A stretch of DNA of 64,000 bases from Escherichia phage ES12. The stretch's first letter is position 1, and every line of letters begins with the position of its first letter. The notes beneath the pieces were generated by a model, which saw only the letters and a list, made by a program, of their open reading frames with translations, was not told the origin of the DNA and did no database searches. The stretch is taken from sequence record MN508614.1. One strand, 5' to 3'. Of the stretch, positions 44,336 through 47,901 are shown piece after piece. The position numbers were made by a program, and so were the translations under genes.

Positions 44336-44806
44336 TTAATCATGTGTCCACACCCCATCGGTATTTGACCAAAGTCGCTGATTATCTGATCCTCGCCACA
44401 GCTTTTTGGTCGGAAGATTTTTCTCATACTTCCCATCAATAATAACATCAACATATTTAAGCATTTCTAGTTGTTTAATATCTTCAAACTTATATCCTGT
44501 CCACAACCAAATGCTTTTATTGGGATAAAGATTTTTAATAGTTTGAACCACAGAGTGAATCACGTCTCTGTTATCAGGATAGAGAGGGTCACCTCCGGTT
44601 ATAGTCAATCCTTCTATATAATCATTATTCAAACATTCAATTAATTGTTCTAGTGTTTCACCAGTGAATGGAACACCATTTCTAGCATTCCATGTTGATT
44701 TATTATAACACCCTTCACATTTATGCAAACAACCTGTAACGAAAAGAACGGTCCTGCAGCCAGGACCATTAACAAAATCGCAAGGATAAAATCTATCATA
44801 ATTCAT
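44336..44806 (-). CDS. nrdG: anaerobic ribonucleotide reductase activating protein NrdG (156 aa, radical SAM)
   Basis: Cys cluster CLHKCEGC; 156 aa as T4 NrdG; coupled to nrdD. Confidence 0.85.
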   Translation of the reverse strand: MNYDRFYPCDFVNGPGCRTVLFVTGCLHKCEGCYNKSTWNARNGVPFTGETLEQLIECLNNDYIEGLTITGGDPLYPDNRDVIHSVVQTIKNLYPNKSIWLWTGYKFEDIKQLEMLKYVDVIIDGKYEKNLPTKKLWRGSDNQRLWSNTDGVWTHD

Positions 44807-46620
44807 TGGTGCTTAACCCTATGCATGATTTCTTTATTTTTGCCGAGATTAAATCCGCGTTCGTTCGGATTTCCCAAATAACCACATGTTCTTCTTATTG
44901 TGTTCATCTTTTTAGGATCAGTTTCTCCACAAATAGAACAAACAAATCCGTTTTCAGTAGGAGTCATTTCATGGGTACTTCCACATGTAAAACATTTATC
45001 TACTGGCATATTAACACCAAAATAATCTAAATGTTGTGCAGCATAATCCCAGACAGCCTCAAGACCTTTTAGGTTATTTTTCATATCAGGAAGTTCAACA
45101 TAAGAAATGTGACCACCTGTCGCAATGAAATGATATGGGGCTTCGCGAGAAATCTTTTCAAACGGAGTAATATTTTCTTCTACTGAAACATGGAAACTAT
45201 TAGTGTACCAGCCTTTATCAGTAACATCTTTTACACTTCCATATTTTTCAGTATCAAGTTTACAGAAGCGATAACAAAGGTTTTCAGCGGGAGTAGAATA
45301 CAAGCTAAAAGCAAAACCGGTTCTTTCAGTCCACTGTTTAAGACGAGCATTCATTTTAGTTAAAATTTCCTGTCCAATATCACGACCGACAAGAATATTC
45401 AATTCGTGAATACCAATGTATCCTAGGGACACTGAACTTCTACCGTTTTTAAATAACTCAATTATGTCGTCATCAGGTTTAAGACGAACCCCGAATGCAC
45501 CTTCTTGGTAAAGAATAGGAGCAACAGTCGCTTTAACTCCTTTTAATGAACTAATTCTACACATCAAAGCTTCAAAACATAAATCCATTCGCTCATTGAA
45601 CAATTCGATAAATTTCTGTTCATTGAACTGTGTTCCAATATAAGAATCTAATGCGATACGAGGAAGATTCAGTGTTACAACACCAAGATTATTACGTCCA
45701 TCAAGAATTTCATTACCAGTCGAATCTTTCCATACGCTCAAGAAACTACGGCAACCCATCGGAGAAACAGGAATAGATGAACCGGTGATAGCTTTATTGT
45801 TCTTAGCTGAAATAATATCAGGATACATTCTTTTGCTTGCGCACTCTAGAGCAAGCTGCTTAATATCATAGTTCGGATCGTCTTTATAAAGATTAACACC
45901 TTCTTCAACAAACATAACAAGCTTAGGGAAAATAGGAGTTATCCCATCACGACCAAGACCTTTAATACGATTTTTCAGAATTGCTTTCTGAATCATTCGT
46001 TCAGTCCAGTCAGTTCCCGTACCAAATGTAATTGTTACAAAAGGCGTTTGTCCGTTTGAACTAAAGAGAGTGTTTACTTCATATTCATAAGCTTGAAATG
46101 CATCGTATACGTCTTTTTCTGTTTTAGATTGAGCATAATTCAACGCATCAGCGATTTGCCATTTTTCTGCATCCTCAATATGTTTTGCATAGGTGCGTTT
46201 AACATAAGGAGAAAGTACTTTATCTACATTCGCAAAAGTCGTTCCGCCGTATTGATGGGAAGCAACTTGCGCAGTAATTTGCGCCATAATTGCAGTAGCA
46301 ACGCCAATTGATTTAGGAGTTTCAATCTGTGCATTACCAAGCTTAAATCCGTTTTCAAGCATTCCTTTTAAATCTACTAAACAACAATTAGTAAATGGAA
46401 GAGCAGGGGAATAATCAATATCATGGAAATGAATAATTCCGCTTTCATGCGCTTTCATAATAAAAGACGGGACCATATTTTTGGCAATGTGTTTAGACAC
46501 AATACCAGCCATAAGGTCCCGTTGAGTTGGAAAAACACGAGAATCTTTATTAGCATTCTCGTTTAAAAGGTCTTTATTAGTTTTATGAATCAATCCTTCA
46601 ATTTCTTTTTCAATTGTCAT
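44803..46620 (-). CDS. nrdD: anaerobic ribonucleotide reductase NrdD (605 aa), uninterrupted
   Basis: C-terminal glycyl-radical and CxxC zinc motifs (CSICG...RTCGYLG); 605 aa; no intron. Confidence 0.9.
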   Translation of the reverse strand: MTIEKEIEGLIHKTNKDLLNENANKDSRVFPTQRDLMAGIVSKHIAKNMVPSFIMKAHESGIIHFHDIDYSPALPFTNCCLVDLKGMLENGFKLGNAQIETPKSIGVATAIMAQITAQVASHQYGGTTFANVDKVLSPYVKRTYAKHIEDAEKWQIADALNYAQSKTEKDVYDAFQAYEYEVNTLFSSNGQTPFVTITFGTGTDWTERMIQKAILKNRIKGLGRDGITPIFPKLVMFVEEGVNLYKDDPNYDIKQLALECASKRMYPDIISAKNNKAITGSSIPVSPMGCRSFLSVWKDSTGNEILDGRNNLGVVTLNLPRIALDSYIGTQFNEQKFIELFNERMDLCFEALMCRISSLKGVKATVAPILYQEGAFGVRLKPDDDIIELFKNGRSSVSLGYIGIHELNILVGRDIGQEILTKMNARLKQWTERTGFAFSLYSTPAENLCYRFCKLDTEKYGSVKDVTDKGWYTNSFHVSVEENITPFEKISREAPYHFIATGGHISYVELPDMKNNLKGLEAVWDYAAQHLDYFGVNMPVDKCFTCGSTHEMTPTENGFVCSICGETDPKKMNTIRRTCGYLGNPNERGFNLGKNKEIMHRVKHQ

Positions 46621-47090
46621 TTTAAACTCTTTCTAAGCTGCTTCTTAAATGAAGCTATTAACTGTGTTTTGGTGTCAGATTCATTATATTCAAATCCTCT
46701 TTGAAGCATCTCGGCCATCATTTCCTCTTTTCCTAAACGAGAAAATTCCTTTGATTTATCTCCAACAAAGTTAGGGTGAATATTATTTTGGGTGTAATCG
46801 GATTTTAAATAAGTAAGTAAATTTTCTAACCATTCAAGATAATCAACACCTTGTCCCTTTAATCCAGAACGATTAAATTTATGCTTCATTTGACCTTCTG
46901 CGGCATTGCAGAGATTACAAAGCAATCCACGTACCTTTCCTGCTTTTGGTCCATTTAATTCATGGTCATGATCAAGATGATTAGCTTGAACATCAGGATT
47001 TAGTTCTCGTTGGCAAATTAAACATTTACCGTTTTGTGCATCATAAAATTTCTGTTTTTCTTCTTTATATAATTTGCCAGTCAATAACAT
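46617..47090 (-). CDS. 49: endonuclease VII gp49 (157 aa)
   Basis: N-terminal CLICQ zinc motif and HLDHDH; 157 aa as T4 gp49. Confidence 0.8.
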   Translation of the reverse strand: MLLTGKLYKEEKQKFYDAQNGKCLICQRELNPDVQANHLDHDHELNGPKAGKVRGLLCNLCNAAEGQMKHKFNRSGLKGQGVDYLEWLENLLTYLKSDYTQNNIHPNFVGDKSKEFSRLGKEEMMAEMLQRGFEYNESDTKTQLIASFKKQLRKSLK

Positions 47091-47131
47091 AATAAAACCC
47101 TTACCTTAAATAGATAAGGGTATTTATTATT

Positions 47132-47308
47132 TTTAAGTATTGTAAAACATTCGATGCAATCGTTTATACTGTCGAATCATCTTTTTAGTAGGACGAGAAT
47201 AGGTTCCTACGCAAGTGGTCATATGAGGGTCCGTAGAATGTCCTTTAATAAAAAGTTTCCAAACCTTACCGCCATTTAACTTTTCAGTATAAACCAATTC
47301 GGTTTTCA
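47132..47308 (-). CDS. small protein (~58 aa) sharing the pin C-terminal tail
   Basis: Hand translation MKTELVYTEKLNGGKVWKLF...KKMIRQYKRLHRMFYNT; tail duplicated from pin. Confidence 0.3.
47134..47180 (-). repeat. direct repeat unit A (~45 bp, encodes MIRQYKRLHRMFYNT tail)
   Basis: aagtattgtaaaacattcgatgcaatcgtttatactgtcgaatcat vs unit B, ~5 mismatches. Confidence 0.6.
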
Positions 47309-47345
47309 TTAAAATGCCTTGTCAGAAAAAGAATTTTGAGTTTTT

Positions 47346-47394
47346 TCAAGTATTATAAAACATTTGATGCAATCGCTTATATTGCCGAATCATT
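47346..47394 (-). repeat. direct repeat unit B (3' end of pin)
   Basis: aagtattataaaacatttgatgcaatcgcttatattgccgaatcat. Confidence 0.6.
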
Positions 47395-47831
47395 TGGTCA
47401 GAAAAAGAATTTTGTGTTTCAAGCCATTCAATATATTCTGCCGCAGCTTGCATCAGGTTACCTTCATAATCATCAATATCTTTTTTCAATGCCACTTTAG
47501 CTAATGCATATGAAATACGTTCACCTTGAAAAGCGGCTTTAGGCTTCTGAACATCTTGGCTAGTTCTCTCTACAACTTCTTCAATTTCGCCATTTTCAAC
47601 GGATTCAGTATTCCACAAGCACCAATACGTAATTGGCTTATCATAGATGTTAATAATCTTTCCGTCGGAAAGTTCAATTTCAATAATTCCAGTATCAGGC
47701 TCTATATCATCTTCACATTCTTTTGTAAGTTCACGAACTTTAAAGACAGTACCTGCACTAAGTTCCGGCCAGTAATTACATAGCCCTGTATCAACACGAT
47801 TAATTCTAAACCACTTATCTACTGTAATCAT
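47346..47831 (-). CDS. Pin-position protein (161 aa from internal ATG; T4 protease inhibitor)
   Basis: ORF 47346..47849 trimmed to MITVDKW with GGAG RBS; 161 aa as T4 Pin; early promoter upstream. Confidence 0.5.
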   Translation of the reverse strand: MITVDKWFRINRVDTGLCNYWPELSAGTVFKVRELTKECEDDIEPDTGIIEIELSDGKIINIYDKPITYWCLWNTESVENGEIEEVVERTSQDVQKPKAAFQGERISYALAKVALKKDIDDYEGNLMQAAAEYIEWLETQNSFSDQMIRQYKRLHQMFYNT

Positions 47832-47871
47832 GTCCCATCTCCATATCAATTAAGTCATTTATCGTTGGTTC

Positions 47872-47901
47872 ATTATATACTGTTTCTTCATCAGTGTAAA
47901 C
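47872..47901 (-). promoter_or_regulatory. T4-type early promoter (GTTTAC, 18-nt gap, TATAAT)
   Basis: attata 47872-47877, gtaaac 47896-47901. Confidence 0.5.

Follow-up and report, generated by a model that had tools for sequence, protein, structure and literature searches.

A partial tandem duplication beside pin in Escherichia phage ES12 and the probable origin of the C-terminal tail of the Lon inhibitor Pin

The stretch of DNA analysed here, called the window, comprises 64,000 nucleotides of Escherichia phage ES12 (MN508614.1). The region around pin belongs to Tequatrovirus, with positions 46900-47900 matching Escherichia phage ES26 at 100% identity and many other phages at 97-99%. The genes nrdD, gene 49, a 58-aa open reading frame (ORF), pin and a 49.1-like gene lie on the minus strand, as do the repeat copies R1, R1', R2 and R2' described below (Table 1). 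The gene that an earlier note on this DNA had placed at the position of Pin was confirmed as pin by the profile PF10465, which matched with 155.4 bits against a cut-off of 27 (1e-45) and spanned aa 10-146 of the 167-aa ORF. The protein was 91% identical to T4 Pin. The PF10465 model leaves out roughly the last 20 residues of Pin, which include the C-terminal tail. The ORF lister began pin at TTG 47849, giving 167 aa, whereas T4 and all homologues begin at the ATG at 47831 (MITVDKW..., 161 aa). This ATG had a Shine-Dalgarno match of -7.1 kcal/mol and is most likely the start of pin.

The promoter-like site upstream of pin is the likely source of a putative early transcript over pin and the small ORF, and a scan for terminator-like sites between the two found none. 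A terminator-like hairpin (47121-47097) lies before gene 49; in T4 it follows directly after the pin tail, and the sequence of the whole element is identical in T4, RB32 and G50. The content of homing elements around nrdD differs among the window phage, T4 and T6. In T4, nrdD is split by a group I intron carrying I-TevII, with mobC adjacent, and T6 has segH at the corresponding place.

Table 1. Features of the pin locus, with positions counted from the first letter of the window.
Feature	Position	Strand	Basis or remark
nrdD	44803-46620	-	uninterrupted, 605 aa
gene 49 (endonuclease VII), downstream neighbour anchoring synteny	46617..47090	-	PF02945 and PF09124; annotation of T4, RB32 and others
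AAATAATAAAT late-promoter-like box and 10-bp hairpin before gene 49, downstream of the repeat	47097..47132	-	sequence scan
R1', probable native DUF7279 tail and source copy of the repeat: helix residues 44-58 and TAA stop	47133..47180	-	repeat family D1
58-aa ORF, DUF7279 (PF23945), phrog_3272	47133..47309	-	Pfam 3e-17
R2' and relic, probable non-coding remnant of the ancestral pin 3' end, 35 nt	47309..47343	-	AAACTCAAAATTCTTTTTCTGAC AAG GCA TTT TAA
duplication junction, A-run TGAAAAAAC	47341..47346	-	between CTTGAAA after the tail and (CTTG)AAACTC of pin
R1, probable captured pin tail: junction codon CAA, 15 codons and TGA stop	47346..47396	-	repeat family D1; alignments with T4, RB32 and G50; codon table
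R2, pin codons ...(E)TQNSFSD, last original pin stretch before the fusion junction	47397..47419	-	repeat family D2; G50 alignment
pin (Lon protease inhibitor PinA), fused T4-type, 161 aa from ATG 47831, ending in ...SFSDQMIRQYKRLHQMFYNT	47346..47831	-	PF10465, phrog_2167, similarity to T4 Pin
sigma-70-type promoter-like site TTTACA-17-TATAAT, upstream of pin	47872..47900	-	11/12 consensus match only

The earlier note had described a direct repeat of about 45 bp with about 5 mismatches, covering the 3' ends of pin and the small ORF. The repeat proved to be real, and the repeat finder, the sequence and the ORF list agreed on its extent. R1 (47346-47393) and R1' (47133-47180) were identical at 42 of 48 bases and lay 213 nt apart. 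The mismatch count is corrected to 6 over 48 nt. The two encoded tails read QMIRQYKRLHQMFYNT and KMIRQYKRLHRMFYNT, as had been stated, and the shared gtcagaaaaagaattttg segment recurred as R2 and R2' (47397-47419 and 47321-47343) with 22 of 23 bases identical. Among 20 windows simulated with a Markov-1 model, no pair of 48-mers at offsets of 48-1000 did better than 30-33 of 48, and the similarity of R1 and R1' is therefore far beyond chance. Six-frame translation of the window found the tail motif at these two sites only.

The arrangement of these segments is that of a partial tandem duplication. The features follow one another in the order R2, R1, junction, R2', ORF and R1'. The direct repeats stand head to tail at a period of 213 bp, and the window holds about 1 1/3 copies of this unit. 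T4 differs from the window by exactly one such period. Alignments with G50 and T4 placed CTTGAAA at both ends of the duplicated unit, which defines a junction at a microhomology. The claim that a partial tandem duplication gives the two adjacent genes a common C-terminal tail was thus borne out by the structure of the repeat. The same junction was present in 114 independent GenBank phage records, each time within one aligned piece, so it is not an assembly artefact. The A-run at the junction counts 6 A in the window and 11 in phage L14, and is prone to slippage. Between this junction and the small gene, the relic reads QNSFSDKAF in the old pin frame, and its old stop overlaps the ATG of the small ORF (TAATG).

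The 58-aa ORF matched PF23945 with 62.7 bits against a cut-off of 24.5, and the alignment covered profile positions 1-53 of 53 over aa 7-56, including the tail. Orthologues were found in five genera (Tequatrovirus, Dhakavirus, Gaprivervirus, Mosigvirus and Gelderlandvirus), all with the tail conserved. The ORF was 100% identical to RB32ORF078c, 78% identical to the JS98 orthologue and 59% identical to that of RB69. The order pin, DUF7279 ORF and gene 49 was shared by RB32, G50, JS98, VR26 and RB69; RB32ORF078c, RB69ORF087c and JS98 orf76 belong to the same DUF7279/phrog_3272 family and occupy the same position upstream of gene 49. In the Gelderlandvirus S16, the DUF7279 ORF was present, and pin and gene 49 were not annotated in the 2-kb stretch examined. 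All of the orthologues from RB32, G50, JS98, VR26, RB69 and S16 end in ...IRxxKRxxRxF. The residues I45, R46, K49, R50, R53 and F55 were invariant across genera, and H52 was invariant in one alignment set but replaced by N in S16. The pN/pS ratio was 0.16-0.45 for the ORF and 0-0.24 for the tail within it, which was the most constrained part. Judged by these comparisons, the small gene appears to be a real gene under purifying selection, although it may be dispensable.

The family itself is small. An exhaustive HMMER search of 1.8 billion representatives returned 9 matches at E<=1e-3, among which only the short ones (29-61 aa) were family-like, and no larger protein carrying the tail was found in it. 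A word-indexed protein search returned 10 proteins, all of 43-61 aa, and a scan of IMG/VR for additional loci found only 5. NCBIfam gave no match for the 58-aa ORF. The DUF7279 family therefore seems to be tiny and confined to Tevenvirinae. The best AF2 model of the protein (pLDDT 81.7, the other four models being lower) showed three β strands followed by a C-terminal helix of residues 42-56, and the S16 orthologue has a model in BFVD that agrees with it (TM 0.75-0.80). According to the model, the tail would be the C-terminal helix of DUF7279. A Foldseek search of the model against PDB gave nothing significant (best E-value 0.27). Several chains of dsRNA-binding domains stood among the weak matches and serve as a lead only. 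Against BFVD, the S16 orthologue was the only significant match. The 58-aa protein is strongly basic, its net charge being about +9 when counted from the sequence.

In contrast to DUF7279, Pin does not carry the tail in all phages. The Pins of G50 and phage 132 end in ...SFSDRAF, that of JS98 in ...FSDEAF, and those of RB69 and phi25-307 in ...ERRLS. Thirteen metagenomic Pin clusters of 148 aa also lack the tail, and the tail-less Pins of G50, phage 132, RB69, phi25-307 and many metagenomic clusters measure 148 aa or 136-141 aa. Because the orthologues of the small gene keep the tail across genera while these Pins lack it, the tail is probably native to DUF7279, with Pin having acquired a copy. 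Looked at in the window alone, the locus would suggest a duplicated pin 3' end, in which the tail would be original to Pin and the 58-aa ORF a young chimeric by-product that may not be a real gene. Such an origin would fit the absence of the ORF from T4 and the weakness of its Shine-Dalgarno pairing, about -3 kcal/mol where pin and gene 49 reach about -7. Full-length, tail-bearing orthologues in five genera beside tail-less Pins contradict it, however, and the pN/pS values, the end-to-end coverage of the ORF by DUF7279 and phrog_3272 and the consistency of the predicted fold with the S16 model also speak against it. We consider this origin very unlikely and retain the view that DUF7279 was the donor.

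The Pin alignment further revealed two sharply different alleles at residues ~113-122 (window 47466-47495), VALKKDIDD and LAAQENNDG. Both 10-residue alleles occur in tail-bearing as well as tail-less Pins, and LAAQENNDG is common to Mosigvirus Pins. Since the two alleles cross the divide between tail-bearing and tail-less forms, and one of them is shared with Mosigvirus, Pin can be regarded as a recombination mosaic. In Dhakavirus (JS98, locus L004, 429-904) and Gaprivervirus (VR26, locus L007, 459-901), Pin is encoded by two genes whose order is permuted. The first, of 57 aa, covers Pfam positions 88-136 (the C-terminal helical part) and ends in ...FSDEAF; it is followed by a 100-aa gene (positions 3-74, the N-terminal part) and then DUF7279. 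This suggests an old tandem duplication of pin with reciprocal partial deletions.

Comparison of the locus with that of relatives distinguished four junction types. In type A, represented by G50, a short pin is followed by the ORF. Type B, found in the window, ES26 and RB32, has a fused pin, the relic and then the ORF. Type C, represented by T4, T2, T6 and AR1, has a fused pin and no ORF, and type D, represented by phage 132, has a short pin with the ORF cleanly deleted at TTTTAAT/TTTTACAAT. Among 438 matching records, type B was counted exactly (114 records), while A (~65) and C (~250) were extrapolated from evenly spaced rows. The number for D (perhaps a few dozen) was likewise extrapolated from rows of BLAST tables, and coverage in such tables is unreliable for typing A, C and D because the pieces flanking an indel were sometimes joined. 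The 194 ORF matches at >=80% identity are consistent with the sum of A and B. The comparison with T4, T2 and T6, which the earlier note had suggested, gave a uniform picture, in which the tail is on Pin in all three and the ORF is absent. Since these three phages lack the small ORF, expression of both tail-bearing genes, which the note had envisaged, is not the general state.

The alignments of G50 and T4 point to the way in which Pin obtained its tail. G50 reads GACCGA GCG TTT TAA TG...AAAAAG/ATGATT and T4 reads GACCGA/ATGATT; the 3' flank TGAAAATAATAAATACCC is identical in both, and the hairpin of gene 49 follows. The pin of G50 ends in QISFSDRAF, its stop overlapping the start of the small gene (TAATG). 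An ancestor of type A would likewise have had a pin ending in ...SFSDRAF with its stop over the DUF7279 start (TAATG), and its small gene would have ended in a helix reading ...MIRQYKRLHRMFYNT. An in-frame deletion would then have joined codon 146 of pin to codon 44 of DUF7279, yielding a 161-aa Pin with the helix of its neighbour (type C). The captured tail R1 would accordingly derive from codons 44-58 of the neighbouring gene. As T4 joins pin codon 146 exactly to codon 44 and shares its flank with G50, T4 Pin appears to be such an in-frame deletion fusion, with the rest of the small gene lost, and the same would hold for T2 and T6. Every sampled Pin tail had the same junction, and all but the recombinant copy of phage PST carried a derived R-to-Q change (LHQMF). 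Because the junction and this change are common to the sampled tails, they point to a single fusion event within Tequatrovirus.

The window and RB32 have the fused pin, then TGAAAAAA, then a copy of the old pin 3' end and then the intact small gene. Type B would thus combine a fused pin, an A-run junction formed at the CTTGAAA microhomology, a 35-nt relic overlapping the ATG and a complete small gene. Two routes to it are conceivable, in one of which genomes of types C and A underwent unequal exchange, whereas in the other a type A genome was first duplicated at this locus and then suffered the deletion. The B-type allele of the ORF (>=99% identical, ~110 records) was present in no sampled type A genome. 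Given that this allele is distinct from the sampled type A alleles, type B does not seem to be a recent recombinant of the sampled lineages. We noted a further difference in the relic. At 47312-47320 (minus strand, GAC/AAGGCA/TTTTAATG), 6 nt lie between R2' and the relic stop, and 4 of these 6 differ from the CGAGCG of type A. The same 6 nt vary between sublineages of type B (AAGGCA in the window, AGGACA in RB32), although the adjacent R2' is nearly identical to R2. The idea that the relic had evolved a stronger Shine-Dalgarno sequence after the stop/start overlap was lost was rejected. Type B gave anti-Shine-Dalgarno duplex energies of -3.0 and -4.0 kcal/mol and type A one of -3.3, which is no improvement, so the AAGGCA/CGAGCG difference is not explained by ribosome binding.

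The two 48-nt copies are live recombination substrates. The Pin tail of PST (type C) carries R1 sequence at its 5' end (GAC CAA AAG ATT) and R1' sequence at six of six diagnostic sites downstream, including the TAA stop. This composition shows that the PST tail comes from a type B genome in which the two repeats recombined and the small gene was deleted. The Pin tail of PsgM02F also ends with a TAA stop. In BCPEco001 (type B), the tail of the ORF has the AAT CAA variant that is otherwise found in AR1-type Pin tails, which indicates gene conversion. Exchange between the copies thus has two effects: it converts type B to type C by loss of the small gene, and it moves variants from one tail to the other.

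A different reading of the repeats would make them a target duplication around a mobile cassette, either a PeSL-type promoter/stem-loop element or a homing endonuclease, with the small ORF as its cargo. The gene is indeed polymorphic in presence within a hyperplastic region, and direct repeats flank a variable segment, but these flanks are the coding sequences of pin and the ORF themselves. A PeSL-type cassette has an early promoter and a stem-loop flanking its gene. A scan of 47310-47345 found neither a promoter-like site nor a stem-loop, the only hairpin being the conserved one before gene 49, and the neighbouring genes in the window include no homing endonuclease. In 355 of 357 records, the ORF occurred at a single place, and it was not seen with the same repeats at unrelated positions. 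Its identical position in all genera examined implies vertical descent with repeated loss. A mobile cassette is extremely unlikely on this evidence. Fusion, partial tandem duplication and repeat-mediated loss explain the repeat better, and we assign a probability of about 80% to this account together with its functional corollary, discussed below, that the Pin tail is a passenger.

Similar events were seen in other phages. In a Mosigvirus-like contig, a deletion at an ACGTTT microhomology has given Pin the 9 C-terminal residues of the DUF7279 gene that lies downstream of it (...YLERR/FHRDFYNVY). This fusion is independent and shows that events of this kind recur. In phi25-307, the downstream gene is cleanly deleted, and this phage, like those of type D, has neither the tail nor the small gene. 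In Mosigviruses, another DUF7279 paralogue lies directly upstream of pin. In RB69 (locus L005, 300-476), it appears frameshifted and is annotated as the 38-aa ORF089c; in a Logan contig (locus L024, 629-799), it is intact with 56 aa; and in a third case (locus L025, 801-1376), it is fused in frame to pin, on a contig of 0.7x coverage that may contain a sequencing error.

We then asked what the tail might do on Pin. The AF2 model of Pin was poor, with a mean pLDDT of 60 and about 50 in the tail, and the packing of the tail could not be read from it. Relative to the inferred ancestor, the Pin tails have undergone 5 nonsynonymous and 2 synonymous events over 38 and 10 sites, respectively. The nonsynonymous changes were the R-to-Q change at the junction codon, M44K, R46Q (T4), H52N (AR1-like) and R53Q, the last occurring in every Pin tail except the recombinant copy of PST. 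Three of them (R46, H52 and R53) hit residues that are conserved across DUF7279. Under a constraint like that on the ORF, at least 5 nonsynonymous events among 7 would be expected with a probability of ~0.06 by our own binomial estimate, which rests on 7 events only. The pattern in the Pin tails fits neutrality and fits ORF-like constraint only marginally, in this small sample. No truncated or frameshifted Pin tail was found in the sample. The tail on Pin is most likely a tolerated passenger helix, we infer, and not a conserved tag.

The earlier note had proposed that the tail might be a common interaction or degradation tag, relevant to the inhibition of Lon by Pin. A tag of this kind should be conserved wherever Pin is conserved, and we found tail-less Pins in G50, phage 132, RB69, phi25-307 and the metagenomic clusters. 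The comparison of homologues lends the proposal no support: because the Pin copy has lost residues that are invariant in DUF7279 and tail-less Pins are common, and because the tail seems to belong to DUF7279, the Lon-tag hypothesis appears unsupported.

The tail might nevertheless be a shared functional module, in which the DUF7279 helix acts as a docking or degron-like element that binds to Lon or to Pin and is under selection in both proteins. The Pin-borne copy of T4-type phages would then stand in for the lost small protein. Several features would agree with such a role. The pin and DUF7279 genes are adjacent in four genera, often with overlapping stop and start codons, and Mosigviruses have paralogues on both sides of pin. 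The two have been fused independently at least twice, and possibly three times, although the third case is the low-coverage L025 contig, and chance fusions are to be expected when deletions remove a gene that overlaps the stop codon of its neighbour. The two proteins differ in charge, the small one being very basic and Pin acidic. The Pin tail, hydrophobic, aromatic and C-terminal, also resembles known Lon degrons by analogy, and the sampled tails are not truncated. Against this, the tail-less Pin is ancestral and widespread, the type D phages and phi25-307 do without both the tail and the small gene, and the Pin tails alter R46, H52 and R53. The S16 gene, moreover, has no recognised pin in the 2-kb stretch examined. 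We judge this shared-module reading unlikely. The overlapping stop and start codons of pin and DUF7279 suggest possible translational coupling. Pin and the basic DUF7279 protein could also be functional partners with the C-terminal helix as the contact element, in which case this synteny, the flanking paralogues and the recurrent fusions would together form a 'Rosetta-stone' signal; we hold this reading to be unlikely. If it were true, the tail of T4 PinA would be a built-in partner helix that modulates the engagement of Lon by PinA.

The passenger reading bears on T4 PinA (UniProt P07068; peptidase inhibitor family I24, PF10465), the textbook phage Lon inhibitor, on which biochemical and structural work has been done. 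Like the Pin of the window, T4 PinA is 161 aa long and ends in the fused tail, and its gene likewise lies between 49.1 and gene 49. In contrast, T4 has no small ORF after pin, while the window keeps the ORF and the relic of an older pin 3' end. For T4 PinA only, it has been shown that the protein binds Lon and inhibits ATP-dependent proteolysis (PMC8835725 and references therein). PinA was reported not to be degraded by Lon and possibly shares a Lon binding site with HspQ; the same paper contains nothing on the C-terminus of PinA (PMC8835725). Our comparison shows, as far as homologous sequences can tell, that the last 15 residues of the studied T4 PinA are not part of the ancestral Pin family. 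They would represent a helix taken over from the gene next to pin, which is no longer present in T4. The 148-aa and 161-aa Pins would therefore offer a natural experiment, and a guide to construct design, for mapping the interface of PinA and Lon.

C-terminal Lon degrons, such as the sul20 tag of SulA, are short peptides rich in hydrophobic and aromatic residues. The sul20 tag is mentioned as FolA-Sul20 in the work on PinA (PMC8835725). The Pin tail and sul20 are both short, hydrophobic and aromatic C-terminal peptides, but they have no sequence similarity, and the analogy may serve as a lead only.

Deletion, duplication and fusion at short direct repeats or microhomologies are familiar in the hyperplastic regions of T4-type genomes. 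The locus follows this pattern: its junctions lie at short homologies (CTTGAAA with the A-run, TTTTAAT/TTTTACAAT and ACGTTT), the indel is exactly 213 bp, and the chimeric tails show homologous exchange. It differs in that a structured helix has apparently been grafted onto a protein of known function, and in that the reference phages carry the fused form. The repeat is an ordinary evolutionary scar and represents neither a new mechanism nor a new kind of system, but it provides a clean and datable example of how T4-type genomes may create and erase small genes through short repeats. The GenBank note on RB32ORF078c, 'similar to ... pin', was the sole earlier trace that we found; in the literature on DUF7279, RB69ORF087c and the PinA C-terminus, we found no paper that explains the similarity of the ORF to pin or describes the pin/DUF7279 fusion scar.

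The window contains a second direct repeat, at 2118-2170 and 2625-2677, with 42 of 48 bases identical and a spacing of 507 nt. Read along the minus strand, it gives ...CCGTGGTACTAT..CTATCAACTACGGAGGAACAGAAAATGAAA, and it looks like a shared cassette of leader, ribosome-binding site and start codon preceding two neighbouring minus-strand genes.
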